64,000 nucleotides of DNA from Escherichia coli (GTDB lineage: Bacteria; Pseudomonadota; Gammaproteobacteria; Enterobacterales; Enterobacteriaceae). Position numbers and translations under genes: made by a program. Under the pieces are notes generated by a model. It had not been told where the DNA came from. It did no database searches and saw only the letters and a list, made by a program, of their open reading frames with translations. Below, piece after piece: positions 655 through 39,096 of the stretch; the stretch's first letter is position 1, and each line of letters starts with the position of its first letter. The stretch lies in NCBI RefSeq assembly GCF_044324875.1, contig NZ_CP172185.1; one strand, 5' to 3'.

Positions 655-880
655 ATAGCCTGTTTGAATAATAATCCAGCCTGTGAATGTTAACACTAAA
701 TGATTCATGTTACATGATTAAAAATCATAGCGATAATATTTTTTAAATTTCTTGGTTTGTGTGCTGAATATTAGATTTCATTACACTATCAACCGTATGA
801 AAAAATTACTTTTCAAGAAAGTATTTATCAAGAAAGATATAAAATCTAACTTTCCAATTTATCTCAATAGGAAAATATAA

Positions 881-4294: not shown

Positions 4295-4483
4295 ATATTA
4301 AGGGGGCGCATATGTATCCGAATTATATATATCATGATTATTTTTTTTAGTTGTTAGAAATAAATTCTTAGCATGGATGCTGTTATTCTTTTTTATATAA
4401 TAAACTTTAGATAATATGAATTGTTTATTGTCAAAAATAAGTATATTTTATTGGGTTAATATATATTTGTATGGTGCATCGGA

Positions 4484-5641: not shown

Positions 5642-5731
5642 AATAATCTGTGTCTCAGTGTAGGTATGTGGCGGTAATGATTTAACTAATAGTTATTGAA
5701 TGTTTCAGTTATACTGAATAAAATTATTATA

Positions 5732-6982: not shown

Positions 6983-7016
6983 AAATAATTTACGTAATAG
7001 TCAACTATGAAATTGT

Positions 7017-9781: not shown

Positions 9782-9790
9782 TTCAACTCC

Positions 9791-11470: not shown

Positions 11471-11490
11471 AAACTCATTCAGCGACAGCG

Positions 11491-12639: not shown

Positions 12640-12710
12640 GTAACGATTATCAAAGTTTCAGTGGGGCGCAAACTCAATGAGAGACTAACCTCTCGAACCC
12701 CGTTGCTTAA

Positions 12711-13694
12711 TTAGTCGAAAATGCGCACAAGGCCAGTGACTTTATTTGCCTTGTTGGTCACCAATAATGTTGAGACGCGGTGCTTTTGCATTTTTTCTTC
12801 CGCTTCAATGATCATGGTGTCTTCCGGTAGCGTCAGCGGTTCACGTGTCATCATCTGCGCAGCCGTGGCGGATGTCAGAGAATCCTCTTTTTCCATAAAG
12901 CGACGCAGGTCACCGTCGGTGATAATGCCCGCTAGCCCACCTTCTGCGTCTTCTACCATCACCATTCCCTGGCATCCGCTGGTGATACGTTGAATCACGG
13001 TTTTAAATGACGCATCCAGCTGTACCGCAGGAACATCATGCTGCATGACATCAGCAACGCGGGTCAGCAGGCGACGACCTAATGAACCGCCCGGGTGATA
13101 GCGCGCAAAATCATTCGGCATAAATTTGCGTTGGTGGATCATGGCAATCGCCAGCGCATCGCCGATCGCCATCGTCAGCGTGGTAGACGTTGTTGGTGCA
13201 AGATTATTCGGGCAGGTTTCATTCGCCATGTGGAGTTCCAGCACGGCATCAGCATTTTTCGCCAGCGTGGAATTTCCATTATTGGTAATGGCGATAATTC
13301 GGTTGCCGAAATTTTTCAGTGAAGGAACTAGCTTGAGGATTTCATCCGTTTCACCGCTGGCAGAAATAAGGATCAGAAGATCGTAAGGCGTAATCATGCC
13401 CAGATCGCCATGGAAAGCTTCTGCAGGATGAATAAAGAAACTAGGCGTACCCGTAGAGGCCAGCGTCGCTGACATTTTACGACCGACATGCCCTGATTTA
13501 CCCATTCCCGAAAGAATAACGTGCCCTTTACAGTTCATTATCAAATTAAGGACACGCTGGTACTGCCCGGAATCCAGTTGTTTAGACAAGTTTTGTAATG
13601 CTGCGCCTTGTTCTGCCAGAGTCTGGCGAACAGAGGTAATTAGATATGGATCGATAGTACTGCTCTGGTCATCAGGTAAATGTCTTTCAGACAT
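12711..13694 (-). CDS. kpsF: KpsF, arabinose-5-phosphate isomerase (SIS + CBS domains)
   Basis: ORF track gives 12711..13730; I place the start at the ATG of MSERHL (13692-13694) because an AAAGGAG Shine-Dalgarno lies 6 nt upstream; SIS motif GMGKSGHVG. Confidence 0.88.
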   Translation of the reverse strand: MSERHLPDDQSSTIDPYLITSVRQTLAEQGAALQNLSKQLDSGQYQRVLNLIMNCKGHVILSGMGKSGHVGRKMSATLASTGTPSFFIHPAEAFHGDLGMITPYDLLILISASGETDEILKLVPSLKNFGNRIIAITNNGNSTLAKNADAVLELHMANETCPNNLAPTTSTTLTMAIGDALAIAMIHQRKFMPNDFARYHPGGSLGRRLLTRVADVMQHDVPAVQLDASFKTVIQRITSGCQGMVMVEDAEGGLAGIITDGDLRRFMEKEDSLTSATAAQMMTREPLTLPEDTMIIEAEEKMQKHRVSTLLVTNKANKVTGLVRIFD

Positions 13695-14300
13695 ATCAGC
13701 TCCTTTGCACGGAAATAATGCCACAGTCACAACAAACCCGAACCCACTATAATTTATTTATGCTAAATCAATGGGTTGTAAAAAATTTTTAATGAATATA
13801 AAACCATGGTCAGTCCATGCTTATATGCAGGACTTATCACCTTCTTATTAAGTCGCAATGTCTCATGGAGGTGCGAAGATGCTGCAATATTACAGGCGAG
13901 AAGGGGAACCAAATTTTGCCCACCTATTTAACACACCCCTACATTATGAACAAGGAATTTAGGATTTTTATCATTTATTAAAATGTTTTCTACTTGACTA
14001 TTAAGAACAAAAACAATTTATCAATTGATTATTTCCTTGTAAAAAAAGAACGTATGACTATGTTATTAATAAATAAAACACGCAAATAATGGTGATGTTG
14101 TTTTGTGATTAACTATTTAAGTGCGGCATAATAAACAGGTTGACAATTTCTATGTAAAGAAGAGGAAAATAATAAAATTTTAGCGGTGACTATTGAATGA
14201 TATGATAGTTGTGGTGTTGATTATTTCTGGTAATGAATGCGGAATTAAATCTGGCCGGATTGTATTTTTGCTATATCTATTTTTCAGGAGATTATTATTA
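13695..14300 (-). promoter_or_regulatory. AT-rich kps region-1 upstream/promoter region
   Basis: long AT-rich ORF-free tract immediately upstream of kpsF; promoter elements not individually resolved. Confidence 0.35.
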
Positions 14301-23283: not shown

Positions 23284-24015
23284 ATGAATCAACCAATACA
23301 CAATGCTTACTGGTTATCCCGTTTTGACAGCCTTCTCGACAGTGCCCTGTCGCAGCACCGTGCCGTCTCGTTAATCCGGGTGGATTTACGTTTCCCTGAG
23401 TATATGCCTGTCACCATCATGGATCCCGATCCGGATTCAGCGGTGATTTCTCGTTTTTTCGAATCCCTGAAAGCCAAAATCCAGGCTTACCAGCGGAAAA
23501 AACGACGTGCCAACAAGCGTGTGCGTGCAACCACTCTGCGTTATTTCTGGTGTCGGGAGTTTGGCAAGGAAAAAGGCAGGAAACATTATCACGTGATATT
23601 GCTGCTCAACAAAGATACCTGGTGCTCGCCAGGGGATTTCAGCGAACCATCTTCGCTGGCGACGATGATCCTGGAGGCATGGTGCAGCGCCCTGCATCTT
23701 GAGGCCTGGCAAGGCGATGGCCTGGTCCATTTTTCCAGGTGGACGCCTTCCCGTAAACCAGCATCGTCTGATGCTCGCCCTTCTTCCGATGACACGCCTT
23801 TGTCGGGTGGATGTTCTGATACCAGGAAGGCTTCAGAAAAAAAGCCGGGTGAAGCCGCTGTTCTCTGGATCAAGCGTGGTGATGTGGAAGCGCTGCAGAA
23901 AGCCCGGAACAGAGCCAGTTATCTCGTGAAATATGAGACGAAGCAGCATGACGGTTCCGGGCAACGTAATTATGGTTGCAGTCGTGGGCCGGGGCGTCTG
24001 CTGGATGGCAGGTGA
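23284..24015 (+). CDS. YagK/YfjJ-family (Inovirus Gp2-like) protein, paralog 1
   Basis: 243-aa ORF; shares blocks with paralogs 2 and 3 (HYHVILLL / EYHVVLCV; MILEAWCSAL / LILDAWSNVL). Confidence 0.7.
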   Translation: MNQPIHNAYWLSRFDSLLDSALSQHRAVSLIRVDLRFPEYMPVTIMDPDPDSAVISRFFESLKAKIQAYQRKKRRANKRVRATTLRYFWCREFGKEKGRKHYHVILLLNKDTWCSPGDFSEPSSLATMILEAWCSALHLEAWQGDGLVHFSRWTPSRKPASSDARPSSDDTPLSGGCSDTRKASEKKPGEAAVLWIKRGDVEALQKARNRASYLVKYETKQHDGSGQRNYGCSRGPGRLLDGR

Positions 24016-24341
24016 GCCCTGTAAAACGACATCCGGTGCCTGAGCTTATGCTACAGGACGTTGGCTGACGCCCTTAGCTCGTTTTCTGAAAAAGTCGTCC
24101 TGAAGTCATGCAACGGTATTTTTCTCTGCTTTCGCTCCTGGAAACACTCCGTCGGTAAAACCTTACTGTCCTGCTTAATGATGTGAACCGAAGTCAACGG
24201 AGATCATTCATTCTGAACCTGCATCCGGTGTTCTGTCCCTTGTCGGTTACCTGATCTTCCCGTTCTGCCGCGGTTTTTCACTTATTCCATCAACCCCATA
24301 CGCAAGCCATAACACGTCAGCGCATCCACGGGCAGGACGCG

Positions 24342-24944
24342 TTGTGGGCTGCGTATAACGGAACATATCTTATGAATGCTATCCCTTATTTCGACTATAG
24401 CATGGCGCCCTTCTGGCCATCTTATCAGAACAAAATCATCGGCGTTCTCAACCGTGTGTTGCGCGAGCAGTCCGGCTCCAGGATACGGCGGATCCTGCTT
24501 CGTCTGCCGGGGGAACATGGCAACATCTTCAGCGACAGAAAAACCTGGTTCGGTATGGCCTTTATCGAAACCGTCAGTGCGCTGATGAATGCAACCCCCG
24601 GACGCGACCTCTGCTGGCTCCTGACCCGTCATCCTGAAAAACCGGAATACCACGTGGTGCTGTGCGTCAGACAGGAATATTTCGACGGCCCTGAGCTGGA
24701 CCGGTTGATTCTGGATGCCTGGAGCAACGTACTGGGCTTCGCGTCACCGGGTGAAGCAGCACCGTACCAGAAACAGATAACCCGGGATGTGGTGCTGGAC
24801 AGTTGTTCACCGGACTGCGAAGAGAGACTCAAAGAGCTGATATGGGCGTTCAGTGATTTCGCCCGCGATCGTCGTGGTGTGCGCGATCCGGAAGCCCGTT
24901 ACCTCGCCGGTAATCCCTGGTATCCCGTAGCAGGCCAGCTCTGA
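24342..24944 (+). CDS. YagK/YfjJ-family protein, paralog 2
   Basis: 200-aa ORF paralogous to 23284..24015; shares the upstream motif TTAATGATGTGAA...TCAACGGAGATC. Confidence 0.7.
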   Translation: MWAAYNGTYLMNAIPYFDYSMAPFWPSYQNKIIGVLNRVLREQSGSRIRRILLRLPGEHGNIFSDRKTWFGMAFIETVSALMNATPGRDLCWLLTRHPEKPEYHVVLCVRQEYFDGPELDRLILDAWSNVLGFASPGEAAPYQKQITRDVVLDSCSPDCEERLKELIWAFSDFARDRRGVRDPEARYLAGNPWYPVAGQL

Positions 24945-25012
24945 AAGCTCAGCTCAGCAGATTCACCCGCATTTGCCCAACATTCATAAATCTCACAGAG
25001 GACATTCTGACC

Positions 25013-25249
25013 ATGTTGACCTCAATGACAGGTCACGACAGCGTATTGCTGCGTGCCGACGATCCCCTGATCGACATGAACTACATCACCAGCTTCACTG
25101 GTATGACCGACAAATGGTTTTACAAGCTGATCAGTGAAGGCCATTTCCCTAAACCCATCAAACTGGGGCGCAGCAGCCGCTGGTACAAAAGTGAAGTGGA
25201 GCAGTGGATGCAGCAGCGAATTGAGGAATCACGAGGAGCAGCAGCATGA
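25013..25249 (+). CDS. alpA: AlpA-family prophage regulatory/excisionase-like protein
   Basis: ...MTDKWFYKLISEGHFPKPIKLGRSSRWYKSEVEQWMQQ matches the AlpA HTH pattern; true start may be an internal Met. Confidence 0.8.
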   Translation: MLTSMTGHDSVLLRADDPLIDMNYITSFTGMTDKWFYKLISEGHFPKPIKLGRSSRWYKSEVEQWMQQRIEESRGAAA

Positions 25250-25478
25250 AACGTGTTGTAATGCCAGTACGCTGGCAATGTGCGAAATGCCGGCGCTGGT
25301 ATTGTGGAAATCAGCCCTGTCCCTGGTGCTGGCGCTGACAACTCCCGCTCATCTTTCTGCTGGCACCCTCTGGCCAGCCAACTGTTTGTCATCATTTCCT
25401 GACTGATTCGTCATTCCCTTCGTCCCGCCAGTCACTGGTGTTTGTATCGTACCGTGCCGGTGTCGATGTGCGCTTTCC

Positions 25479-26075
25479 GTGTGTCTGGTCTGCACCGGCT
25501 TAACAAAATTCAACGGGGATAAAATAGTGCAAATAACCGAAGCCTTACTTTCAGCGCCGGGGGAAATCCGGCGTTTTGTTCAGCAGGCGGTGGACCACTG
25601 GCCAAATCTGTTGGCATTTCACTTCACGCTCCATTCGGCAGAAGGAAACATCAACGGACAACAGATTCATGCATTCTGTACTTCCTTTTACCGACAGGTG
25701 CACGAGCGTATTACTGAACGTAATCACACGGCCAGTCCAGCACCACCGGTGGTATTACGCTGGTTGCGGGAACAACATGGAGGAGCAACAATGCGATGCC
25801 TGTTGCTGCTCAGCCAGACGAGCATTTGCCATCCACGGGTCAGTGCCACGGTTGATGAAGAATGTTCGCAACGGGTGGATTTATTGCAACAGACATGGCG
25901 GGTGATAAGTGCTGACGGACAATGCCGGGTGGAAAGGTGTTTTCAGGCTGCCCGGGGTGATACATCCGGCCAGTATATTGCGTTAAAAACAGTTGCATTG
26001 TCTCTGGGGTTACCGGTTGTGACCGGTATTACCCATCGCCCGGTACAGCGCTGTACATTGATTACAGCTCAGTGA
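25479..26075 (+). CDS. probable third YagK/YfjJ-like paralog (divergent)
   Basis: 198-aa ORF with weak shared blocks (ATMRCLLLLSQ, LLQQTWRVI); start uncertain. Confidence 0.45.
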   Translation: MCLVCTGLTKFNGDKIVQITEALLSAPGEIRRFVQQAVDHWPNLLAFHFTLHSAEGNINGQQIHAFCTSFYRQVHERITERNHTASPAPPVVLRWLREQHGGATMRCLLLLSQTSICHPRVSATVDEECSQRVDLLQQTWRVISADGQCRVERCFQAARGDTSGQYIALKTVALSLGLPVVTGITHRPVQRCTLITAQ

Positions 26076-26092
26076 ACAGCGCTGTTGTGCAG

Positions 26093-26395
26093 TCAACGAG
26101 GTTTTCTGTCTTTTCGTCGGTCATTCAGCATCATTAAACGGGTCTCTGCCTCTTTCTGTTCCTGTGGTGTCACTTCCCCGCACGGCTGACCGTTCAGGTT
26201 GTAACGGGCGCCACCTGCTATTAACGCACGGTAATAGCACGGAGACTGCACATAAGACGCCACTGCTGCATGTAATGTACCAGCGCCAAACGCCAGTTCT
26301 CGGATGGCGATATCCTGTATCAGGTCGTCAGGTATCCCCACTTTAAGTGGTTTTGTTTTTTTCCCGGTTGAATGACTCAGGCCAGAGTTCCACAA
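26093..26395 (-). CDS. hypothetical protein (100 aa), possibly a fragment
   Basis: ORF only; adjacent minus-strand ORF 26410..26604 may be its frameshifted upstream part. Confidence 0.3.
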   Translation of the reverse strand: MWNSGLSHSTGKKTKPLKVGIPDDLIQDIAIRELAFGAGTLHAAVASYVQSPCYYRALIAGGARYNLNGQPCGEVTPQEQKEAETRLMMLNDRRKDRKPR

Positions 26396-27196
26396 GACGA
26401 ATAATGCGCTTACGGTTTTTGCTCTGGCGTTTTGTCATGTCGCCACGGTGTTTTATCAGCAGGTTTCTGTTTATCGTTCAACTGTGGTATCTGGTCACCG
26501 GCCTTCATTTTGTATGCTGTGTCCGTTTTATCCTGCAGCGGCGTTGCCGGTGATTTACTGAAAATACCCTGCGGTTTACGGTTAATGGTCAGAGTTACCA
26601 TCAATTTTGTTACCTCGCGCTGTCAATGGAAGTAGTACCTCATCCGATATCTGAAAATGTTTTCCGGTGGATGTTACAGCGAATTTCATGTAAGACATGT
26701 TGTTGTCGGTATTGTTCAGTACTGTGCGTTGTGAGCGTATTCGTTATCAGACAGAGGGGCAGGGAACAAACGTCAGAGGTTAAGGATATCCGGGAACAAA
26801 TGGCGTAAACGGACATCTCAGTGCCTGAGAAACAGTACAGGTCAGGCCATCATGGCCTGCAAACAGAGCCCTGGCGACCCCGTGGCCGAAAACGAAACAA
26901 TAACCCGCGCGCAGTGCGAGGAATCCGGATGTGAAGCAATCAGCAGGTAATATTAATGGCAGGACCAGCAGGTTCTTTAAACAAACGAACATGCTGTAAT
27001 TGATATTTTGCTTATTGTATTTTCTTTTTAGTTATTAAATTAATTTATTTACGAAAAATTTTCTGCAGATACAGGATGGGAATTCAGGGTGTCATCACGC
27101 CTTATGATGACACCCTTCCCCTGGTTGTGGAAAACCGAAGGATATATCAGGTTCAGCAACAAAATCAGTGAGCTGAAAGATACCAGTCCCCCAGCT

Positions 27197-28216
27197 TCAG
27201 CAGCTTTCACGTAAACATAAACAGGGCTCAATGAATATCTGATTGCTCCAGTTACCTTCTTTAATTCGTTCCAGCAAAACATTTCCTGCTTCCAGACCAA
27301 TTTTCCTGTGAGGAACGGCCATTGTTGTTAATGATGGTTGGCAAACTTTGCTGACGTCACTGTCACCAAATCCTACTACGGCGAGCTCGTCTGGAACTTT
27401 GATCCGTCTTCGTTGACATTCATAGAGAACACCGCAGGCTAACTCATCTGACACACATACCAGGGCATCCAGTTCCGGCCATGCGAGCAAAAATTCCGGT
27501 AGTTGTGATGCTCCGGTGGAAAAAACAGGTGGCAGAGCAGCGTTAATAACACGGTTGGGAGACATATGATGGCGTAACATAGCTTTATACCATCCCTGTA
27601 AATGCTGCTGAAAGATCCACTGTTCCTGGTTAGCGCATAGCAAACCGATATTCTGATAACCACGTTGTACCAGCATATCCGTCAGCTCGAACATTGCTGC
27701 AACATTATCAATACCAATGTTGATATCTATCGGATCAGTACGAATGGCACCGATTTCTATAACAGGAATCGAGGCATTTTTGAGCAAGTGACGCACGGTA
27801 CTATTATGCTCAACACTAAGCAAAATTGCTGCAGCGATATTAGAAGCCAGCAGGGTTTCCAGCAGTTTTTCTTCTTGTTCCAGACGATGGCGTGACTCAG
27901 CCAGGATTATTTGATACCCCGCTGGTTGTAGCACATGTTGCAGCCCGGCAAACATTTCCGTGCATCCCGCTTCAGCCAGGTTTGGCACGACCATTGCGAT
28001 CGTGTGTGAAGATGCCGATGCCAGTGCGCTTGCAGTGAGGTTGGGCATATACCCTAATTCATTAACTGCGGCTTCAATCTTCTCCCTCAATTTATCTGAA
28101 ACTTGTTCGGGAGTGCGTAACGCTCTGGATACAGTCATTGTGCCAACTCCCGCGAGTTGCGCGACATCAGCAATAGTGACTTTACCTGTACTACGACGTT
28201 TTCGGGTTATTGCCAT
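27197..28216 (-). CDS. LacI-family transcriptional regulator
   Basis: 339-aa ORF with N-terminal HTH VTIADVAQLAGVGTMTVSRAL and periplasmic-binding-like effector domain; divergent from PTS operon. Confidence 0.9.
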   Translation of the reverse strand: MAITRKRRSTGKVTIADVAQLAGVGTMTVSRALRTPEQVSDKLREKIEAAVNELGYMPNLTASALASASSHTIAMVVPNLAEAGCTEMFAGLQHVLQPAGYQIILAESRHRLEQEEKLLETLLASNIAAAILLSVEHNSTVRHLLKNASIPVIEIGAIRTDPIDINIGIDNVAAMFELTDMLVQRGYQNIGLLCANQEQWIFQQHLQGWYKAMLRHHMSPNRVINAALPPVFSTGASQLPEFLLAWPELDALVCVSDELACGVLYECQRRRIKVPDELAVVGFGDSDVSKVCQPSLTTMAVPHRKIGLEAGNVLLERIKEGNWSNQIFIEPCLCLRESC

Positions 28217-28348
28217 ACAAAATCCTGCTCAGCGACTACATATGGAGATCTTTTATTACTTATCATCAACGGCTTCCTGCACTGCCAGTAGCAGAGTATA
28301 CCTCTTAATATCTGCCATAAGTCTGGATTTAATCAGTGAAATCTATTT

Positions 28349-28362
28349 TGATAGCGCTATCA
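28349..28362. promoter_or_regulatory. candidate LacI-family operator O1 (perfect palindrome TGATAGCGCTATCA)
   Basis: 14-bp perfect palindrome with central CG in the divergent intergenic region. Confidence 0.6.
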
Positions 28363-28382
28363 CAAATTCGAACAATACCTCC

Positions 28383-28396
28383 TGATAGCGCTATCT
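28383..28396. promoter_or_regulatory. candidate LacI-family operator O2 (TGATAGCGCTATCT, 13/14)
   Basis: near-identical second copy 34 bp downstream of O1. Confidence 0.55.
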
Positions 28397-28467
28397 TTGT
28401 GATATTGATCGCAGATATACCGTCGTTACTTGAATACATTCTGGTCATATAAATAAGAAATTAGGGG

Positions 28468-28917
28468 GTGGGAGTGCTTAATATCTGGCTTTCTGATTCA
28501 ACAATCGCATTACGAAAGAATGCCGCAACCTGGCAGCAGGCATTAGATATCTGTGCCAGACCGTTACTGGATGCAGAGATAATTACGACGGATTATCTCA
28601 GTGCGATAAAGACACAACATGAAAAACTGGGGCCTTATTATGTCCTGGCACCCGGGCTGGCCATGCCGCATGCCCGACCAGAAGAAGGGGCAAAAGGATT
28701 AGGTTTATCATTATTAAAACTTGAAGAAGGTGTCAGTTTTCATACAGAGGAATTTGATCCTGTAGATGTTATCATTTTACTTGCCGCACCAGACAAACAC
28801 AGTCATATCGAAATGATATCTGCACTGGCTGAGTTATTCTCCAGCGAAAAAGATTTACATGAATTGCATCAGGCTCGCAATGTGGAGGAAATAAAAAAGA
28901 TAATTTCACGGTTCTGA
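28468..28917 (+). CDS. PTS EIIA component, ascorbate (UlaC/SgaA)-type
   Basis: 149-aa ORF with conserved YYVLAPGLAMPHARPEEG phosphorylation-site region; GTG start. Confidence 0.8.
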   Translation: MGVLNIWLSDSTIALRKNAATWQQALDICARPLLDAEIITTDYLSAIKTQHEKLGPYYVLAPGLAMPHARPEEGAKGLGLSLLKLEEGVSFHTEEFDPVDVIILLAAPDKHSHIEMISALAELFSSEKDLHELHQARNVEEIKKIISRF

Positions 28918-28995
28918 TTACATTATAAATTCAGTCTTTTCACAACATTGCGCCGTTGCGTGATGGGACTTCTTCAACTTAAAATGGTGAATATA

Positions 28996-29268
28996 ATGAA
29001 AATTATGGCTATTTGTGGCTCAGGGCTTGGTAGTAGTTTTATGGTCGAAATGAATATTAAAAAAGTTCTGAAAAAAATGGATATAGAGGCGGAAGTGGAA
29101 CATTCCGATCTCTCATCAGCAACGCCAGGGGCTGCCGATTTATTTGTGATGGCCAAAGATATTGCTGCCAGTGCCAGCGTACCGGAAAGTCAGTTGGTGG
29201 TTATCAACAACATCATTGATATTAATGAACTCGAAACGCAACTGCGTAACTGGTTAGCAAAACAATAA
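28996..29268 (+). CDS. PTS EIIB component, ascorbate (UlaB/SgaB)-type
   Basis: MKIMAICGSGLGSS active-site Cys motif; start placed at the internal ATG rather than the ORF-track start 28948. Confidence 0.8.
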   Translation: MKIMAICGSGLGSSFMVEMNIKKVLKKMDIEAEVEHSDLSSATPGAADLFVMAKDIAASASVPESQLVVINNIIDINELETQLRNWLAKQ

Positions 29269-29284
29269 CCTTAATTGAAGCGAG

Positions 29285-30679
29285 GTGGATATGTTTATCC
29301 TTGAAACGCTGAATTTTGTTGTTGATATACTTAAAGTGCCCGCGATACTGGTCGGCTTGATTGCCTTAATTGGTCTGGTTGCCCAGAAAAAATCTTTTTC
29401 AGATGTTGTTAAAGGTACAATTAAAACTATTCTCGGCTTTATTGTACTGGGCGGTGGTGCCACTGTTTTGGTTGGTTCGTTAAATCCTCTTGGGAGTATG
29501 TTTGAACATGCCTTTAATATTCAGGGCATCATTCCGAATAATGAGGCTATTGTTTCTATTGCGCTGGAAAAATATGGCGCATCGACGGCCCTTATTATGG
29601 CATTTGGTATGGTGGCGAATATTATTGTTGCCCGCTTTACCCGCCTTAAATATATCTTCCTGACCGGACACCACACATTTTACATGGCCTGCATGATTGG
29701 TGTGATTCTGACAGTGGCTGGTTTTGAAGGTATATCACTGGTCTTTACCGGTTCTCTTATTCTGGGACTTGTGATGGCATTTTTCCCGGCATTAGCACAA
29801 CGCTATATGAAGCGTATTACGGGGAATGATGACATTGCTTTTGGTCACTTTGGCACTCTGGGATATGTACTTTCTGGCTGGATTGGCAGCGTGTGCGGTA
29901 AAGGTTCCCGCTCCACCGAAGAGATGAATTTGCCCAAAAATCTGAGCTTCCTGCGCGACAGTTCCATCTCTATTTCTCTTACGATGATGGTGATTTATCT
30001 GATCATGGCGATCAGTGCTGGTCGTGAGTTCGTTGAAAGCCAGTTCAGTGGTGGTCAAAACTACCTTGTCTACGCCATCATAATGGCCATCACCTTCGCT
30101 GCTGGTGTATTTATTATTCTGCAAGGCGTGCGTTTAATCCTTGCTGAAATAGTTCCGGCATTTACCGGGTTTTCAGAAAAGCTGGTGCCGAATGCCCGTC
30201 CGGCCCTCGATTGCCCGGTTGTGTATCCGTATGCGCCAAACGCAGTGTTAGTTGGTTTCTTGTTTAGCTTTTTTGGCGGTCTGGTAGGGCTATTTTTGTT
30301 GGGACAGATGAAACTGGTGTTGATTCTTCCGGGTGTCGTTCCTCACTTTTTTACCGGGGCGGCTGCTGGCGTATTTGGTAACGCTACGGGGGGACGTCGT
30401 GGCGCAATGATTGGTGCTTTTGCGAATGGCTTATTGATTACCTTCCTGCCAGTACTGTTATTGCCGGTTCTTGGGGCGATAGGCTTTGCTAATACGACCT
30501 TTTCCGATGCAGATTTTGGTGCTGTCGGCATCGTCCTCGGAAACCTGGCACGTTATCTCTCACCTTTTGCCATCACCGGACTTGTAGTAGCGCTATTTGT
30601 GCTGCTGGTTGCCTGGAACATTTTCGCCAGTAACAAAATCGCTGCCAAAGCGCAGAAGAAGAGCGGAGCCAAATCATGA
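29285..30679 (+). CDS. PTS EIIC permease, ascorbate (UlaA/SgaT)-type
   Basis: 464-aa polytopic membrane ORF resembling the UlaA family. Confidence 0.85.
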   Translation: MDMFILETLNFVVDILKVPAILVGLIALIGLVAQKKSFSDVVKGTIKTILGFIVLGGGATVLVGSLNPLGSMFEHAFNIQGIIPNNEAIVSIALEKYGASTALIMAFGMVANIIVARFTRLKYIFLTGHHTFYMACMIGVILTVAGFEGISLVFTGSLILGLVMAFFPALAQRYMKRITGNDDIAFGHFGTLGYVLSGWIGSVCGKGSRSTEEMNLPKNLSFLRDSSISISLTMMVIYLIMAISAGREFVESQFSGGQNYLVYAIIMAITFAAGVFIILQGVRLILAEIVPAFTGFSEKLVPNARPALDCPVVYPYAPNAVLVGFLFSFFGGLVGLFLLGQMKLVLILPGVVPHFFTGAAAGVFGNATGGRRGAMIGAFANGLLITFLPVLLLPVLGAIGFANTTFSDADFGAVGIVLGNLARYLSPFAITGLVVALFVLLVAWNIFASNKIAAKAQKKSGAKS

Positions 30680-31506
30680 ATGTTAAAGAATTGACTCAAT
30701 TTGCACGGGATATACGTATCCAGACGCTTAAATCATTAACTCATCTCGGCTTCGGTCATTATGGTGGCAGCATGTCGGTTGTGGAAACGCTGGCAGTGCT
30801 TTATGGCGCTGTAATGAAAATTGATCCTGCTGCTCCCGACTGGCCTGAGCGTGACTATTTTATCCTGTCCAAAGGACATGCCGGACCTGCTCTCTACAGT
30901 ACTCTGGCGCTGAAAGGCTACTTTCCACTGGAAGAATTAAGCACCTTAAATCAGAACGGAACCCGCTTACCAAGTCATCCGGATCGGCTAAAAACGTGTG
31001 GTGTTGATAGCACCACAGGATCGCTGGGGCAGGGGATATCCATTGCCGGAGGGATGGCGCTGTCGCATAAACTGGCGGGGCGCAAGAATCGGGTTTTTTG
31101 TATTGTCGGCGATGGCGAACTTAATGAAGGCCAATGTTGGGAAGCTTTCCAGTTTATCGCGCATCATCGTTTGAATAACCTCACTGTGTTTGTGGACTGG
31201 AACAAACAGCAGCTTGATGGTCAACTGGATGAAATTATTAATCCATTTGATTTGGAAGGAAAATTCCGGGCTTTCGGTTTTGATGTCGTGACAGTGAAGG
31301 GCGATGATATTGAGGGCTTGTTGAATGTAGTTAAACCTGTCCTGCCAGCTGAGGCCAGACCGAGAGTGGTCATTCTCGATAGCATTAAAGGGCAGGGGGT
31401 GCCGTGTCTCGAGCAACTCAGTAATTCTCATCACTTACGCCTCACAGAAGAGATGAAGGGGACGCTAAACGAAACAATTCGCCAACTGGAGGATATGCAT
31501 GATTAA
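30676..31506 (+). CDS. transketolase, N-terminal (thiamine-diphosphate-binding) subunit of a split enzyme
   Basis: 276-aa ORF with GHxG-type and GDGELNEG motifs; 4-bp overlap with EIIC gene. Confidence 0.85.
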   Translation: MNVKELTQFARDIRIQTLKSLTHLGFGHYGGSMSVVETLAVLYGAVMKIDPAAPDWPERDYFILSKGHAGPALYSTLALKGYFPLEELSTLNQNGTRLPSHPDRLKTCGVDSTTGSLGQGISIAGGMALSHKLAGRKNRVFCIVGDGELNEGQCWEAFQFIAHHRLNNLTVFVDWNKQQLDGQLDEIINPFDLEGKFRAFGFDVVTVKGDDIEGLLNVVKPVLPAEARPRVVILDSIKGQGVPCLEQLSNSHHLRLTEEMKGTLNETIRQLEDMHD

Positions 31507-32443
31507 TCTCGCACCGGCAGGACAAAAAGACAGCATTGAAATGCGCAAAGTTTATGCAGATTTTATCGCGCAACAGAGTAAAAACGTCAGTTCTGTCATT
31601 GCTCTTGAGGCTGATTTAATGAGTTCCATGGCAATGGACAGCGTGGCGCAGGATTATCCAGATCACGTCATTAATTGCGGCATTATGGAAGCCAATGTTA
31701 TCGGCACAGCTGCAGGGCTGGCCTTAACCGGGCGCAAGCCATTCGTGCATACCTTTACCGCATTTGCCAGTCGTCGCTGTTTTGATCAACTCTTTATGTC
31801 GCTTGATTACCAGGGCGCTAACGTCAAAGTTATAGCTTCTGATGCGGGTGTTGCTGCTTGCCACAATGGCGGAACACATATGTCATTTGAAGATATGGGA
31901 ATTGTGCGCGGGCTGGCGCATTCGGTGGTGATGGAGATGACAGATGCCGTAATGTTCAGCGATATCTTGCGTCAACTCGTTGCACTGGAAGGATTTTATT
32001 GGATTCGTACCATTCGGAAGCAAGCAGCGAGTATTTACGCACCAGGTACAACCTTTACAATTGGCAAAGGGCAGGTATTACGTGAAGGTACGGATGTCAC
32101 CTTAATTGCTAATGGCATTATGGTGGTGGAAGCCCTGGAGGCCGCACGTCAACTTGAGCTGGCTGGGGTAAGTGTAGCGGTGATTGATATGTTTACGCTC
32201 AAACCCGTTGATCGGATGTTAATTAAAAATTATGCCGAAAAAACAGGACGGATCGTAACATGTGAAAACCATAGTATTCATAATGGATTAGGTTCAGCGG
32301 TTGCTGAAGTGCTTGTAGAAACTTGTCCTGTGCCCATGCGTCGGGTGGGGGTTAAAGAGCGGTATGGCCAGGTTGGAACTCAGGACTTTTTACAGAGAGA
32401 GTACGGGTTAACCGCGCAAGATATTGGTAAGCGTACAGCCTGA
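31499..32443 (+). CDS. transketolase, C-terminal subunit; last codons replaced by IS66-family insertion
   Basis: 314-aa ORF; IS left end (32427) lies 17 nt before the stop, so the terminal GKRTA* is IS-derived. Confidence 0.85.
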   Translation: MINLAPAGQKDSIEMRKVYADFIAQQSKNVSSVIALEADLMSSMAMDSVAQDYPDHVINCGIMEANVIGTAAGLALTGRKPFVHTFTAFASRRCFDQLFMSLDYQGANVKVIASDAGVAACHNGGTHMSFEDMGIVRGLAHSVVMEMTDAVMFSDILRQLVALEGFYWIRTIRKQAASIYAPGTTFTIGKGQVLREGTDVTLIANGIMVVEALEAARQLELAGVSVAVIDMFTLKPVDRMLIKNYAEKTGRIVTCENHSIHNGLGSAVAEVLVETCPVPMRRVGVKERYGQVGTQDFLQREYGLTAQDIGKRTA

Positions 32444-32497
32444 ACCGTCTGGTCAGAATCTGACGAATTAGACAAAGTGGTGTCCACCAAATAAGTA

Positions 32498-32899
32498 GTG
32501 GGAACCAAAGTGTCAGATATGCAGAAAAATGTGACTCCCGGCAGGCGAAAAGGCTGCCCTAATTATCCTCCCGAATTTAAACAGCAGCTCGTTGCTGCCT
32601 CCTGTGAACCCGGGATATCCATCTCAAAACTTGCTCTTGAAAATGGCATTAACGCCAATCTGTTGTTCAAATGGCGACAACAATGGCGCGAGGGAAAGCT
32701 GCTATTACCTTCTTCAGAGAGCCCCCAGCTACTTCCTGTGACTCTCGATGCAGCTGCCGAACAGCCAGAATCGCTCGCAGAGGACCCGGAAACCCTCAGT
32801 ATCAGCTGTGAGGTAACGTTCCGGCACGGGACGCTCCGCTTCAATGGCAATGTCAGCGAAAAGCTCCTGACTCTGCTGATACAGGAACTGAAGCGATGA
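32498..32899 (+). CDS. IS66-family accessory protein OrfA
   Basis: 133-aa ORF with HTH-like ...NANLLFKWRQQWREGKL. Confidence 0.85.
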   Translation: MGTKVSDMQKNVTPGRRKGCPNYPPEFKQQLVAASCEPGISISKLALENGINANLLFKWRQQWREGKLLLPSSESPQLLPVTLDAAAEQPESLAEDPETLSISCEVTFRHGTLRFNGNVSEKLLTLLIQELKR

Positions 32900-33243
32900 T
32901 CCCTTTACCTTCCGGGACCAAAATTTGGCTGGTTGCCGGTATCACCGATATGAGAAATGGCTTCAACGGCCTGGCTGCGAAAGTACAGACGGCGCTGAAA
33001 GACGATCCCATGTCCGGCCATGTTTTCATTTTCCGGGGCCGCAGCGGCAGTCAGGTTAAACTGCTGTGGTCCACCGGTGACGGACTGTGCCTCCTGACCA
33101 AACGGCTGGAGCGTGGGCGCTTCGCCTGGCCGTCAGCCCGTGATGGCAAAGTGTTCCTTACACAGGCGCAGCTGGCGATGCTGCTGGAAGGTATCGACTG
33201 GCGACAGCCTAAGCGGCTGCTGACCTCCCTGACCATGCTGTAA
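32896..33243 (+). CDS. IS66-family OrfB
   Basis: 115-aa [34 protein letters not shown]...; 4-bp overlap with orfA. Confidence 0.85.
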
Positions 33244-33292
33244 ATCTCTTTATCCTGGTTGTCACAGAATAAGCCCGGTAAAATACGGGCTT

Positions 33293-34831
33293 ATGAACGA
33301 CATCTCTTCTGACGACATCTTCCTGCTGAAACAGCGCCTGGCCGAACAGGAAGCGCTGATCCACGCCCTGCAGGAAAAGCTGAGCAACCGGGAGCGCGAA
33401 ATAGACCATCTGCAGGCGCAGCTGGATAAACTCCGCCGGATGAACTTCGGCAGTCGTTCCGAAAAAGTCTCCCGCCGTATCGCACAAATGGAAGCCGATC
33501 TGAACCAGCTTCAGAAAGAGAGCGATACGCTGACTGGTAGGGTGTATGACCCGGCAGTACAGCGTCCGTTGCGTCAGACCCGCATCCGTAAGCCGTTCCC
33601 TGAATCACTACCCCGTGACGAAAAGCGACTGTTGCCTGCGGCGCCGTGCTGCCCGAACTGCGGCGGTTCACTGAGCTATCTGGGCGAGGATACCGCCGAA
33701 CAGCTGGAGTTGATGCGTAGCGCCTTCCGGGTTATCCGGACGGTACGGGAAAAACATGCCTGTACTCAGTGCGATGCCATCGTGCAGGCACCTGCACCTT
33801 CGCGGCCCATCGAGCGGGGTATCGCCGGACCGGGGCTGCTGGCCCGCGTGCTGACCTCGAAGTATGCAGAGCACACCCCGCTGTATCGCCAGTCAGAAAT
33901 ATACGGCCGGCAAGGTGTGGAGCTGAGCCGTTCACTGCTGTCGGGCTGGGTGGATGCATGCTGCCGGCTGCTGTCTCCGCTGGAAGAGGCGCTTCATGGC
34001 TATGTCATGACTGACGGCAAACTCCATGCCGATGATACCCCGGTCCAGGTACTGATGCCGGGTAATAAGAAGACGAAGACCGGGCGGTTGTGGGCGTATG
34101 TTCGTGATGACCGCAATGCCGGGTCAGCGTTGGCACCTGCAGTGTGGTTCGCTTACAGCCCGGACAGAAAAGGCATCCATCCGCAGACTCATCTTGCTTG
34201 CTTCAGCGGTGTGCTGCAAGCGGATGCGTACGCCGGGTTCAACGAGCTGTATCGCAATGGTGGGATAACGGAAGCTGCCTGCTGGGCTCATGCCCGCCGA
34301 AAGATCCACGATGTGCACGTCCGCATCCCGTCAGCACTGACGGAAGAAGCCCTGGAGCAGATCGGTCAGTTGTACGCCATAGAGGCGGATATAAGGGGAA
34401 TGCCGGCAGAGCAGCGGCTTGCTGAACGTCAGCGAAAAACGAAACCGCTGTTGAAATCCCTGGAAAGCTGGTTGCGTGAAAAGATGAAGACCCTGTCGCG
34501 ACACTCAGAGTTGGCGAAGGCGTTCGCGTACGCACTTAACCAGTGGCCGGCACTGACGTACTATGCGAACGATGGCTGGGTGGAAATCGACAACAACATC
34601 GCTGAAAATGCCCTGCGGGCGGTAAGTCTGGGTCGTAAAAACTTCCTGTTCTTCGGCTCTGGCCATGGTGGTGAGCGGGGAGCGCTACTGTACAGCCTGA
34701 TAGGGACGTGCAAACTGAATGACGTGGATCCAGAAAGCTACCTTCGCCATGTGCTTGGCGTCATAGCAGACTGGCCGGTCAACCGGGTCAGCGAACTGCT
34801 TCCGTGGCGCATAGCACTGCCAGCTGAATAA
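33293..34831 (+). CDS. IS66-family transposase OrfC
   Basis: 512-aa ORF with N-terminal leucine zipper, CCPNCGG zinc motif and DDE core. Confidence 0.9.
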
Positions 34832-35113
34832 CACATCCCCGTCAATACGGCCCTCGCTGTACGCTTACAGATATTGTGGCGGCAGCCAGAGAGCTATTGT
34901 AATTCATGGAGTTTGTTTACCATTCTGTTTTTCTTAAAAGTGAGTGTCTGTGCGGTCACTAAACTCGGTAATAAAGCAGTTCATTGCAGGATAAGAAGCG
35001 TTTGGTTGTGTCGTTTTACCGTAAGAACCGACCGCCGTATGTAGCCATTAAGCCAGTATTGGTAACGTAGGTGCCCACCTTTTCAATGTACTGCGCCCCA
35101 AATCTTGGACATC

Positions 35114-35893
35114 CTATGAAAAATGTTTAAGTCGATATTGAACCGGACTCATACCATCGAGTTTCTCTTTAATGCGATGGTGATTGTAGTATTCAATGTA
35201 ATCAATTATATCTTGCTTTAGATGATGTAACTTATTGTATTTATTTAGATAGTAACATTCTGATTTTAATGTACTAAAAAAGCTTTCCATTGCTGCATTA
35301 TCTAAGCAGTTACCACGTCGGGACATGCTTTGTGTTATGCCATTATCACTCAACCAACGTTGCCAACGAGGCATCTGATATTGCCACCCCTGATCACTAT
35401 GCAACAAGGGCTTATCGTCTTTATTGAGTTGTTCTACCGCATCTAATAGCATGCTCTTTACCATTGATGCTAATGGGCGCTCAGTAAGGTTATATGAGAC
35501 TATTTCTCCATTATACAGGTCCATGATTGGTGATAAATAGAGCTTCCTGCCATCGACCTTAAACTCAGTGACATCTGTTACCCACTTTTGATTTGGGCGG
35601 TCAGCATAAAATTGTCTCTTCAGTAAATTATTACAAGTTCGCCCCTGTTCTCCACGATAGGCACGGTACTTCTTGCGCCTGATAAGTGAGCTGATACCCA
35701 GTTCCTTCATTAACTTTCTGATGGTTTTACCATTAAGTAAAATGCCCTCGTTACGGCAGGCAAGTCTGATGCGTCGATAACCATAACGCCCTTTATGCTG
35801 ATGGTATATTCTCAATATTACTTGTTTAACAAGTTGATATGGATCTGGCGCATTAAGGCGTTTCACGTGATAGTAAAATGTACTACGTGGCAA
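35114..35893 (-). CDS. IS3-family transposase OrfB (DDE integrase core); probably expressed as OrfAB fusion by -1 frameshift
   Basis: 259-aa ORF with rve-type motifs; its frame stays open upstream into the end of orfA. Confidence 0.8.
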   Translation of the reverse strand: MPRSTFYYHVKRLNAPDPYQLVKQVILRIYHQHKGRYGYRRIRLACRNEGILLNGKTIRKLMKELGISSLIRRKKYRAYRGEQGRTCNNLLKRQFYADRPNQKWVTDVTEFKVDGRKLYLSPIMDLYNGEIVSYNLTERPLASMVKSMLLDAVEQLNKDDKPLLHSDQGWQYQMPRWQRWLSDNGITQSMSRRGNCLDNAAMESFFSTLKSECYYLNKYNKLHHLKQDIIDYIEYYNHHRIKEKLDGMSPVQYRLKHFS

Positions 35894-35952
35894 ATCAGCG
35901 ATAACCAGTAATTGTGATAATGGATGACATTGCCTTAACTCATTAATAATGA

Positions 35953-36453
35953 TTACTTTTTCTTTTGTTCCAATCGTAATTTTTCCTGAGCTAAGGCTTT
36001 CAGCTTTTTTAGATAAGCGTTCTCAACTCTCAGAAACTCAAGTTCTTCCCGTTCACTGATTGTCAGTTGTGTCGAACGATTTCGTTGATAAACAGCAGGA
36101 GTTTTCGGCCTCAAATCTTCCTTTTGTCCCTTCATCGAAAAATCAACCTCACTGTATTTTTTAATCCATTTGGATATGGTGTTAAAAGCAGGGATCCCAT
36201 ACTTCACTGCAGCTTCCCTTATAGAAAGAGAATTATCAATAACATCTCTGACCACATTCAATCTGAAGTTATCGTCATAACGTCTTTTTTGCCCAGTCAG
36301 TGTTTTTAATCCGTGCTTACGGTAAACATAAGCCCATTTCCTTACCGTGCTGGGGTCAATATTGTACATTTTTCCAACAGACTTCAAACTCAGCTCACCT
36401 TCCAGGTATTTTTCTGATACTTCCCTTTTGAATTCTAATGAAAATTTGCTCAT
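35953..36453 (-). CDS. IS3-family transposase OrfA (HTH)
   Basis: 166-aa ORF ending in coiled-coil EQKKK; G-AAA-AAG slippery-like run at its 3' end. Confidence 0.8.
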   Translation of the reverse strand: MSKFSLEFKREVSEKYLEGELSLKSVGKMYNIDPSTVRKWAYVYRKHGLKTLTGQKRRYDDNFRLNVVRDVIDNSLSIREAAVKYGIPAFNTISKWIKKYSEVDFSMKGQKEDLRPKTPAVYQRNRSTQLTISEREELEFLRVENAYLKKLKALAQEKLRLEQKKK

Positions 36454-36519
36454 ACGCTCCTCAGTTACAGATCTGGTGTCTAACTATTGGGGCGCACTTC
36501 ATCAAACTGGTGGACGCCT

Positions 36520-36695
36520 GTTATGGAGCAAAAACATTATCCGCAGAACCCCGCAGATCATTTTCAAATGAGTTAAACTTCAAATGGTTAAACTGGTTTT
36601 GCAACCAGGAGCCTCTGTTGCCCGTATTGCCCGGGAACACGATATCAATGATAACCTCCTGTTCAAATGGCTCAGACTCTGGCAGAACGTAAGGT
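36520..36695 (+). pseudogene. degenerate IS OrfA-like remnant (HTH transposase N-terminus, frame-shifted)
   Basis: two adjacent frames give ...RRSFSNELNFKW... and ...GASVARIAREHDINDNLLFKWLRLWQ..., typical of IS66/IS3 OrfA. Confidence 0.35.
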
Positions 36696-37548
36696 AAAGG
36701 GAGATGAAAAAGGCAATAGCAGAACTGAGTGACAGTGAAACCATTCTGGCGTACAGGGTTGGATGGTGAAACTGATAAAAAAACCCCTCTGAAAATTCTG
36801 TCAGAGGGGTGTAGTCAATAAGGGTGTCATATTCAACATGAAGATGTCTTCTGGGAATGTTTACATAGCAAATGCTTTCACTCCGGTAATTAATTTCCGT
36901 GATTAACTGCTTTCGATCAATAAAGGAATTGCAAAAGTGTGATCTTGTTCACGACATTGTGGATGATAATATGCCTGATGTCTGAATCCGGAAACAGTGA
37001 TCTGGCGGTTTCATGTGAAGTTGACGGATAAAAAATCCGCACGACCAGACAGACGTGCGGTTTACGAAATTCGTAACAAGAGGCTTTTCTACGGATCACG
37101 TGGTGCGTGCCACGTGAAATTTTTGTAGCGCAAAATGTGTGATGTGTAAATACAAGGAAGGAAAAAAGTTAAATCGGTGGAAGTCCATGCCTGCCACATG
37201 TATGTCTGCATTCCTCGTTTTGAACAGAATTCTCACCAGACATCGTGAATTTCTCATTCAATCATCAGAGATATTACCCAGGATTTTTATTGTTTTGTGA
37301 TAGCAGTACTTTAAATGTTCAGATGCTAAAATAAGCGCGCTTATTATAATTATAGTTATGATGTTTTATCTTTATGTATTTTAATGATTTTCTCGTCATT
37401 GCTTTTCTGCTGCTTAAATTGAGGGCGCATATTATACACAATAATATTCCTGGCATTATTAAATTAATAAAAGAGGATTCTTATCACTGTATTTTTGCTC
37501 CGCACTACCGTTCTGGCTGGTGAAGTAATAATACAGGAGAATAACAGA

Positions 37549-39096
37549 ATGCTTAAAAGACGTGATGCTTTTTTAAAGAAAAGCGCGCTGGCAGTGAGTG
37601 TGGCCCTGCTGCTCTCATCTCAGGCTCAGGCTCAGGATATTTTATTCGGACCGATTCAACCTGGCGAAGATAATAGCTTTCTTGTTGGAGATTCAGTAGC
37701 TGGCCGTTCGTCTGGTGACATAAGAAATGTATGGTTGGTGGGTGATAATTCTTTTTTATTAGACTCAAACAGGACTGTGCTTTTGGGGAATAATTCTGGT
37801 GTTGTGAGCTCTCCGGGAAGTGTGAGTCTGGGGCATGATGCACTTATTGCTGACTCTGAATGGGGGACTGTTGCAGGAAAAGAAGCGTCACTTATTTCTT
37901 CTCGTCAGAGCTCGGCAATTGGTGCGTTTTCATCTGTGCAGGATTCTACCAGTTCTGTAGCTCTGGGCCATGGCTCACAGGTGTCGGGAGAAAATAACGT
38001 GGTATCTGTTGGTGCCGGGCCTGAGGGATATGGAGAGAGTGTCAAAGGAGCACCGGAAACCCGCCGGATTATAAATGTGTCTGATGGTATCAATAACACA
38101 GATGCAGCGACGGTAGGGCAACTGAATGAACGATTTGATGATGCACAGGTCTTTTTGTTGCAGACGAATGAAAGAATTGACGAGACAGATAAACGTCTTT
38201 CAACAGTTCATGCTGAACTCAGCAGGGATATTATTGCAGGCACATCGGCAGCGGTGACGTATACAGATGTAACAGCGCTTGCACTTCAGGATGAGATAAA
38301 GGATGGGACGAACAAAGTACGTGATGAGTTGAAATCACAGGGAGACAGTCTGCGTGGTGAGATAGGCGGTGTATACAGAGATGCCCGTGCTCATACTGAC
38401 AGTCAGGTCACAGCAGTACGTGATGAACTGAAGGCAGAGGGAGACAGTCTGCGCGGTGAGATAGGCGGTGTATACAGAGATGCCCGTGCTCATACTGACA
38501 GTCAGGTTACAGCAGTACGTGATGAACTCAGCAGGGATATTATTGCAGGCACATCGGCAGCGGTGGCGTATACGGATGCATCTTCTCTTGCTCTTCAGGA
38601 TGAAATAAAAGAAAAAGCGGATGAAACAGTTCAGGTTTCCCGGGCTTATACAGATAAAAGTGTACGGGATGCCCGTAAAGAAGCGAAAAGCCAGGCAGAA
38701 CATCTCAGCGATGTGCTTGTGAAGAACAGGGCGCAGACGGATGCAGCAATAGCCTCAAATACAGCAGCGATAAGGAATAACAGTCATCGTCTGGATTTGA
38801 CGGAAGCCTGGCAGAAGATGGCGACAGAGAGAATGAATAATATGCAGGAGCAGATTAAAGAGAACCGGAAGGAGTTAAGGGAGAGTGCAGCCCAGAGCGC
38901 GGCACTGGCAGGTCTTTTCCAGCCATACAGTGTTGGAAAATTTAACGCGACAGCAGCCGTTGGTGGTTACCGTGATGAGCAGGCCATTGCGGTGGGCGTG
39001 GGCTACCGTTTCACAGAGAATGTGGCAGGAAAAGTTGCAGTTGCTGCAGGTGGGTCATCCGCATCGTGGAATGCTGGTGTGAATTTTGAGTTCTGA
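37549..39096 (+). CDS. trimeric autotransporter adhesin (YadA-like C-terminal anchor) with repetitive coiled-coil stalk
   Basis: start placed at ATG 37549 (AGGAGA 9 nt upstream; signal peptide [28 protein letters not shown]); C-terminus ...GVGYRF...AGVNFEF. Confidence 0.85.
38317..38514 (+). repeat. 2 x 99-bp in-frame near-perfect tandem repeat within the adhesin stalk
   Basis: units at 38317-38415 and 38416-38514 differ at a few positions; flanked by a ~95-bp dispersed repeat pair at ~38211-38306 and ~38521-38615. Confidence 0.85.

Follow-up and report, generated by a model that had tools for sequence, protein, structure and literature searches.

A probable island-borne copy of the enterobacterial yfcD-pta phosphotransferase and transketolase operon in Escherichia coli, altered at its 3' end by an IS66-family element

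Sugar uptake genes of the phosphotransferase system (PTS) stand next to transketolase genes in several described loci. In Streptococcus pneumoniae, the ula2 operon (SPD_1957-1961 / SP2127-2131) has an asc-type PTS followed directly by the N and C genes of a split transketolase; ketopentose transport was proposed for the pneumococcal arrangement, without proof (PMC3302838), and a weak, 2-3 fold induction of ula2 by ascorbate was measured (PMC4324149). In extraintestinal pathogenic E. coli (ExPEC), the tkt1 genomic island of the avian pathogenic E. coli (APEC) strain APEC O1 carries an accessory transketolase-like gene beside a PTS gene (PMC3349570), and PTS/transketolase genes are already annotated in the pathogenicity island PAI I5155 of APEC IMT5155 (PMC4232414). 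For Salmonella, a review that refers to Shaw et al. 2018 lists tktC as a transketolase gene, counted third and with a regulation similar to that of tktB (PMC12651746). Here we analyse a module of this general type at positions 27197-32443 of a 64,000-nucleotide stretch of E. coli DNA (RefSeq assembly GCF_044324875.1, contig NZ_CP172185.1), called the window in the following. With a probability of roughly 0.7, the module represents a copy, carried on an island, of a self-contained catabolic operon with six genes, which is ancestral to Enterobacterales and combines inducible uptake with a transketolase.

Open reading frame (ORF) listing together with Pfam and NCBIfam scans confirmed the gene content and the operon layout that a preliminary description of this DNA had proposed, with all six ORFs at the coordinates expected and with strong domain matches:

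27197-28216, minus strand: LacI-family regulator of 339 amino acids (aa), divergent; LacI helix-turn-helix (HTH) and Peripla_BP domains, E = 1e-19 to 4e-28 (PF00356, PF13377, PF00532)
28474-28917, plus strand: PTS enzyme IIA (EIIA), 147 aa; PTS_EIIA_2 (PF00359), E = 2.7e-34
28996-29268, plus strand: PTS enzyme IIB (EIIB), 90 aa; PTS_IIB (PF02302), E = 8.5e-17
29291-30679, plus strand: PTS enzyme IIC (EIIC) of the L-ascorbate family, 462 aa; EIIC-GAT (PF03611), E = 4e-153, 510 bits, full-length
30676-31506, plus strand: transketolase N-terminal subunit (thiamine diphosphate (ThDP)/PP-domain), 276 aa; Transketolase_N, E = 1e-46
31499-32443, plus strand: transketolase C-terminal subunit, 314 aa here (317 when intact); Transket_pyr, E = 4e-24, and Transketolase_C, E = 2e-32

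The E-values of 1e-17 to 1e-153 exclude chance domain matches. Since the EIIC gene overlaps that of the N subunit by 4 nt and the two transketolase genes overlap by 8 nt, the arrangement is of the operon type. Within the six-gene module no gene besides the regulator, the PTS and the transketolase was found, and an Rfam scan of positions 25000-37000 gave zero matches. The end coordinate of 32443 given earlier does mark the stop of the last ORF but is not the native end of the gene, which is interrupted at 32427 by an IS66-family element.

These six genes, with identical order, orientation and sizes (339/147/90/462-463/276/317 aa), were found between the Nudix gene yfcD and yfcC/pta-ackA in every context examined, which comprised Salmonella, Enterobacter, E. 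marmotae (2 loci), E. fergusonii, E. albertii (2 loci), Mixta and Kosakonia. In Salmonella enterica Typhimurium this locus is presumably STM2340-STM2345, where the two transketolase genes encode TktC; in the literature searched, these locus tags came up in just three papers, each time in passing. The two operator-like palindromes described below are also shared, whereas the window copy differs in its setting, a mosaic pathogenicity island with CP4-type genes and insertion sequence (IS) elements and with IS66 at the 3' end. Protein searches with the N subunit gave identities of 96% for E. fergusonii, 95% for E. marmotae, 89% for E. albertii and 88% for Salmonella, and of 84-89% across Mixta, Kosakonia, Citrobacter, Enterobacter, Klebsiella, Raoultella and Trabulsiella. 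The amino acid identity to the Salmonella copy was 73-94% per gene, with 88% for the regulator. What had been put forward as a feature of an ExPEC island is instead found as an ancestral chromosomal yfcD-pta locus in Escherichia relatives, Salmonella, Enterobacter, Kosakonia and Mixta.

DNA homology to these loci is limited to positions 27193-34903 of the window, from 4 nt past the stop of the regulator gene to 1 nt past the transketolase stop. The island cassette measures exactly 5.26 kb and carries nothing of the ancestral flanks. In K-12, just 32 bp lie between yfcC and yfcD and the module is missing. At the nucleotide level, the window copy was 91.9% identical to the chromosomal locus of E. 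marmotae, 90.5% to that of E. fergusonii, 85.7% to E. albertii, 76.0% to Salmonella and 74.5% to Enterobacter. Because this gradient roughly follows the relatedness of the species, the island copy may be the former yfcD-pta locus of the E. coli lineage itself or have reached it from a close sister clade. E. coli proper has probably lost the chromosomal locus, and a copy with exact operon boundaries sits in a mosaic island segment of a minority of strains. All six genes had dN/dS ratios (nonsynonymous to synonymous substitution rates) of 0.03-0.12 against E. marmotae and E. albertii. The dS values against E. marmotae were uneven across the genes, from 0.08 (IIB) to 0.64 (C subunit), which hints at a mosaic or recombinant history. 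The G+C content of 45.8% was rejected as a sign of foreign origin, since the other Escherichia chromosomal copies are at 46-47%.

Among 5426 complete E. coli genomes, the full-length module was found at an identity of at least 99% in 132, in all cases on the chromosome and in none on a plasmid, and blastn in its near and distant modes detected no diverged second allele in these genomes. The genes c3405-c3410 of CFT073 (PAI-metV) had been considered as a possible match but were not adopted, as c3405 was mentioned in none of the papers searched. This agrees with the earlier view that the module is accessory in E. coli and absent from K-12. In a further 234 genomes the match was limited to the final 147 bp of the gene for the C subunit (window positions 32274-32420), with 98.0-98.6% identity. 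In strain CDF6, this remnant is a 177-bp annotated pseudogene that abuts an IS1 pseudogene and lies inside the same flanking island genes. Such a stub of about 150-180 bp beside IS1 was present in 234 of the 366 genomes with this island segment, among which loss of the module is commoner than its retention. The stub genomes share one recurrent deletion end-point.

Among the carriers are IMT5155 and BEN2908, two model strains of APEC. Hosts were tallied from evenly spaced rows of two match lists, drawn from a genome collection that is not an unbiased sample; the full-length matches in these rows were mostly from poultry and the others from humans, and among the samples listed the carriers were mostly avian and human ExPEC. 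PAI I5155 of IMT5155, BEN2908 and E956 contain practically the same DNA as the window (2 mismatches in 5234 bp to E956 and BEN2908) with the same flanking island genes, but they have the intact 317-aa C subunit and their surrounding islands differ. The host islands vary, the module being near ireA and IS2 in E956 and IMT5155, by setC/yicL in TUM9803, a site which we take to be the selC-side locus, and 13 kb from kps in the window. The pathogenicity-island setting that had been described holds for the window, which encodes a kps capsule, an adhesin of the YadA-like type and a serine-protease autotransporter (SPATE). The tkt1 island of APEC O1 was excluded as the identity of the module by its different gene content and location, namely a single full-length tkt1 and a glucose-type IIBC between metE and ysgA.

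The PTS belongs to the L-ascorbate (Asc/SgaT) family within the ascorbate/galactitol superfamily, with an EIIC-GAT fold, a separate EIIB with its Cys and an EIIA with its His, and EIIC scored above the cut-off of the NCBIfam entry 'PTS ascorbate transporter subunit IIC' (PRK12996; 989 versus 890 bits). It shares the family, the three-protein architecture and the phosphorelay His and Cys with UlaABC (SgaTBA) of K-12. The His of EIIA in GLAMPHARPEEG aligned with His68 of UlaC and Cys7 of EIIB with Cys9 of UlaB, which are the active-site residues that become phosphorylated. The residues of E. coli UlaA that contact vitamin C (PMC6048161) were mapped onto EIIC through the pairwise alignment, by which 10 could be placed while M410 fell outside. 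EIIC keeps the contacts H135, H194, D314 and F362, shows a conservative change of I358 to V, and also keeps the mechanistic (elevator) residues G58, G286 and R288. Five of the 10 mapped contacts are changed (T86N, Y87E, I136H, Q139Y and Q195F). The identities were 40% for EIIA to UlaC, 27% for EIIB to UlaB and 29% for EIIC to UlaA; at 29% identity and with contact residues not kept, EIIC does not qualify as part of an UlaABC orthologue. The gene order is C-B-A in K-12 and A-B-C here. The K-12 system is accompanied by ulaG, ulaDEF and the DeoR-type UlaR, whereas no ulaG, ulaD, ulaE or ulaF gene and no UlaR regulator were found in the module or the orthologous loci examined, and the regulator here is of the LacI type.

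The changed contacts and the absence of ulaG/ulaDEF argue against L-ascorbate as the specific substrate. Judged by these residues, the name 'PTS ascorbate transporter' denotes no more than a family, so that the term 'ascorbate-type' used for the module before applies to its family and not to its specificity. A second uptake system for L-ascorbate, or for an analogue such as erythorbate or dehydroascorbate, would deliver its product to the core UlaG/UlaDEF enzymes and leave extra xylulose-5-P to the transketolase. The NCBIfam score, the conserved UlaA residues and the 2-3 fold induction of pneumococcal ula2 by ascorbate (PMC4324149) are in its favour, but we regard it as quite unlikely in view of the low identities, the alteration of half of the mapped contacts and a regulator that is LacI/GntR-like and not of the UlaR type. 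In addition, the species with this locus keep a separate six-gene set that lacks a lactonase or decarboxylase. The comparison with ula2 of S. pneumoniae is one of gene layout; the Gram-positive operon has a PRD-type activator with EIIA/EIIB domains, in contrast to the LacI-type repressor and separate EIIA of the window.

The transketolase residues were compared with those of TktA. H28, H68, H101, D146, N176 and H252 of the N subunit aligned with H26, H66, H100, D155, N185 and H261, and R16, S43, E64, H127 and R170 of the C subunit corresponded to R358, S385, E411, H473 and R520 of TktA and to R318, S345, E366, Q428 and R474 of the human enzyme. In transketolases, these residues form the ThDP/metal motif, the catalytic His cluster, the cofactor-activating Glu and the phosphate-binding Arg/Ser/Arg. 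Among 138 representatives, E64 was conserved in 134, R16 in 108, S43 in 71 and R170 in 134. Both subunits have the features expected of a split-chain transketolase in their PP and Pyr domains, but not the canonical His/Asp of the channel. Among solved structures, the nearest is that of the split transketolase from Carboxydothermus hydrogenoformans (6YAK/6YAJ; E = 3e-64 and 1e-70), an active enzyme with the same two-subunit architecture. Transketolase activity has reportedly been described for the Salmonella orthologue TktC (Shaw et al. 2018).

With the catalytic residues intact, the transketolase might be the selected part of the module, an extra pentose-phosphate isoenzyme acting as a TktC-like stress back-up, with the PTS genes carried along uncoupled. 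This would fit the count of Salmonella tktC as a third transketolase regulated similarly to tktB (PMC12651746) and the avirulence of a triple tkt mutant (PMC10368262). We consider it unlikely, because from E. coli to Mixta the six genes stay together with overlapping stop and start codons and are all under similar purifying selection, and because a dedicated repressor with conserved candidate operators points to a substrate-inducible pathway.

The regulator has the N-terminal LacI HTH and the periplasmic-binding-protein-like effector domain of the LacI family. Its best NCBIfam similarities were to GntR/IdnR-type sugar-acid repressors (270, 225 and 202 bits), all under the equivalog cut-offs. 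The divergent intergenic region is poorly conserved apart from three sites, listed without strand:

28349-28362: candidate operator O1, a perfect 14-bp palindrome, TGATAGCGCTATCA, invariant in 8 taxa amid divergent intergenic sequence
28383-28396: candidate operator O2, TGATAGCGCTATCT, reading TG(A/G)TAGCGCTATCT across taxa, 34 bp centre-to-centre from O1
28398-28413: CRP-like site TGTGATATTGATCGCA, by its sequence pattern (TGTGA-N6-TCGCA)

The spacing between O1 and O2 is fixed at 34 bp in all 8 taxa, and the 12-bp core GATAGCGCTATC occurred just twice in the 64-kb window, compared with about 0.13 occurrences expected by chance. Strict matches to TGTGA-N6-TC[AG]CA were present in 4 of the 8 taxa and near-matches in E. 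marmotae and E. albertii. The hexamer TACATT at 28435-28440 is a possible -10 element, which would place the CRP-like site at about -41.5. A promoter and terminator consensus scan gave no more sites than were found in shuffled sequence. We infer from the conserved sites that the promoter is controlled by the repressor and CRP.

At its 3' end, the module of the window was altered by the following insertion:

32427-34868, plus strand: IS66-family element with tnpA (32498-32899), tnpB (32896-33243) and tnpC (33293-34831), in agreement with the RefSeq names
34877-34902, plus strand: native 3' end of the C-subunit gene, now displaced (VAAARELL and the stop codon), by its match to intact copies

The terminal inverted repeats of the element begin with GTAAGCGTACAGC, and an 8-bp target duplication, AGATATTG, lies on either side of it at 32419-32426 and 34869-34876. 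With the tnpA-tnpB-tnpC genes, the inverted repeats and the 8-bp duplication, the element has all the hallmarks of the IS66 family. In the alignment with the intact copy of APEC E956, the sequence was identical up to position 32426 and then passed into the left end of IS66. The C-subunit gene keeps 309 native codons; codon 310, whose first base is native, starts five IS66-derived codons and a stop, by which the last 8 codons are replaced and the protein ends in GKRTA instead of the native VAAARELL. None of the 5426 complete E. coli genomes has the junction, which points to a recent, strain-specific event. The rest of the module, with only 2 nt differences in 5234 to E956 and BEN2908 and all ORFs open, likewise indicates that the insertion is recent. 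An IS3-family element follows at 35114-36453 on the minus strand (orfA 35953-36453, orfB 35114-35893), some 180 bp beyond the native stop codon of the transketolase, and in TUM9803 an IS3-family transposase is also found directly downstream of the transketolase genes. The presence of IS66 and IS3-family elements marks the 3' flank of the module as an IS hot spot.

From the position of the lesion, transketolase activity is probably kept despite the loss of the last 8 residues of the C subunit. The lost segment is conserved even in E. coli TktA, which ends in VAKAKELL, and this could mean that the module is decaying cargo in this strain, with the C subunit inactivated by the exchange of VAAARELL for GKRTA and the operon dead. 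Frequent loss of the module from related islands, as a sign of weak selection in E. coli, would agree with such a decay. To us it is nevertheless improbable: the loss is confined to 8 of 317 residues, the catalytic and cofactor residues are all upstream of the insertion, and the five other ORFs are intact in a module that differs from intact copies by 2 nt in 5234.

For the operon as an inducible uptake and transketolase unit, we propose the following scheme. Without inducer, the LacI/GntR-like repressor would occupy both GATAGCGCTATC palindromes of the divergent promoter region, and inducer together with cAMP-CRP would allow transcription of the operon. Phosphate would be relayed from EI/HPr to the His of EIIA and the Cys of EIIB, both of which are present. 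EIIC would import and phosphorylate a sugar, probably related to a ketose or a sugar acid and not L-ascorbate itself. The heteromeric transketolase, whose catalytic residues are present, would then use the PTS product directly as a ketol donor or relieve a load of xylulose-5-P, feeding the pentose-phosphate pathway and glycolysis. Since no variation is seen in the six-gene composition, the product of the PTS should itself be a transketolase substrate or be made one by housekeeping enzymes. More specifically, but only tentatively and against the odds, the PTS and the transketolase might constitute a two-step route, in which EIIC imports and phosphorylates a free ketose (e.g. a ketopentose, a heptulose or an erythrulose-type sugar) and the transketolase cleaves the product directly. 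If this were true, the pair would stand for a new specificity of the PTS and for a specialised subclass of transketolases, conserved across Enterobacterales and sporadically re-acquired by E. coli on islands.

Several points weigh against this reading of the module. The link between the sugar and the transketolase is drawn from gene adjacency alone in a module without other enzymes, and we know of no member of the yfcD-pta locus whose substrate has been established. The assignments of the candidate operators and of the CRP-like site are predictions from the sequence, and the enzyme of this strain could be impaired, as its IS66-altered C terminus lacks a segment conserved in TktA. Finally, the equivalent of TktA H461 is D115 and that of D469 is N123 in the C subunit, where the canonical H...GEDG is replaced by D115...C-H-N123-G, and with these changes the preferred substrates may differ from the textbook ones.

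The same D/N pair occurs in the Salmonella and Enterobacter orthologues, whereas the C. hydrogenoformans enzyme has the canonical H...GEDG in place of D...CHNG. Among the nearest 50%-identity representatives (n = 138), 46 had D/N and 52 the canonical H/D, the others including Y/N and Y/A. As far as the motif tells, the D/N type is a widespread subclass and not a defect. The motif was rejected as proof of an exotic substrate, being as common as 46 in 138. The genomic contexts of three distant D/N-type split transketolases showed no consistent PTS linkage and no informative partner enzymes.

The module had been put forward as a niche-specific fitness or virulence determinant of ExPEC. In favour of this, genes for a capsule, an adhesin and a SPATE share its island, the APEC models IMT5155 and BEN2908 carry it, and the full-length matches in the evenly spaced rows of the match lists were mostly from poultry and otherwise human. 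Such a role is nevertheless very unlikely in our estimate. An intact module was found in a mere 132 of the 5426 complete genomes, 234 genomes that have this island segment keep no more than a stub of it, and the copy of the window is clipped by IS66. It is also a chromosomal locus of the housekeeping type in plant- and insect-associated genera, e.g. Kosakonia and Mixta, and no experimental report was found in the literature searched. The preliminary description had itself named truncation or loss of function in relatives, or a core-genome location, as findings that would speak against it; in part this is what we observed, with 234 of 366 segments reduced to the stub and the last gene clipped here. 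A contribution to extraintestinal fitness is thus unsupported, as nothing was found in favour of it.

The literature already contains annotations of this gene set, which is part of an enterobacterial locus that is known and in part characterised. New are the exact boundaries of the cassette, its relationship to the ancestral locus, the IS66 lesion and the frequency of the IS1-associated loss, and also, as predictions from conserved sites and residues, the candidate operator pair and the residue-level case against ascorbate specificity. One candidate for an "ExPEC-specific metabolic virulence module" is removed by this analysis, as it is a relocated widespread operon that is often deleted in E. 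coli and IS-damaged in the window. The remaining value lies in a locus whose conservation extends from Mixta to Salmonella and which contains the third transketolase of Salmonella, with the PTS substrate as the question of interest. Starting points for finding this substrate are the conserved candidate operators, the likeness of the regulator to GntR/IdnR and the alterations in the UlaA-type pocket.

Further genes of the window were noted around the module. CP4-57-type genes lie upstream at 23284-26600, encoding an inovirus Gp2-family protein, an AlpA-like HTH protein and a ProQ/FinO-family protein; the gene of the latter is annotated as frameshifted in E956, TUM9803, BEN2908 and CDF6. The flanks upstream of the module are alike in genomes with and without it. 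On the other side, a YadA-like trimeric autotransporter adhesin of 533 aa with a YadA_anchor domain is encoded at 37495-39096 (plus strand). Among strains with the same island segment its length varies (E956, 452 aa; BEN2908, 421 aa; TUM9803, 515 aa), which suggests variation in repeat number.

A region 1 set of group 2 capsule genes was recognised by domain matches at 5732-13730 (minus strand). It comprises two Capsule_synth proteins (kpsS- and kpsC-like), a CMP-Kdo-type cytidylyltransferase (kpsU-like), a Poly_export/SLBB protein (kpsD-like), an SIS and CBS protein (kpsF-like) and a 382-aa protein without Pfam match at the position of kpsE. Beside it, positions 1-5700 have a G+C content of 31-34% and encode a 1137-aa protein with only a HAD-hydrolase match and a 385-aa TPR protein; this part presumably corresponds to region 2 of the capsule locus, the serotype-specific one. 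The SPATE, a protein of 1274 aa with Peptidase_S6 and PIC/HAP1/IgA0 beta-solenoid domains, is encoded at 59908-63732 on the plus strand.

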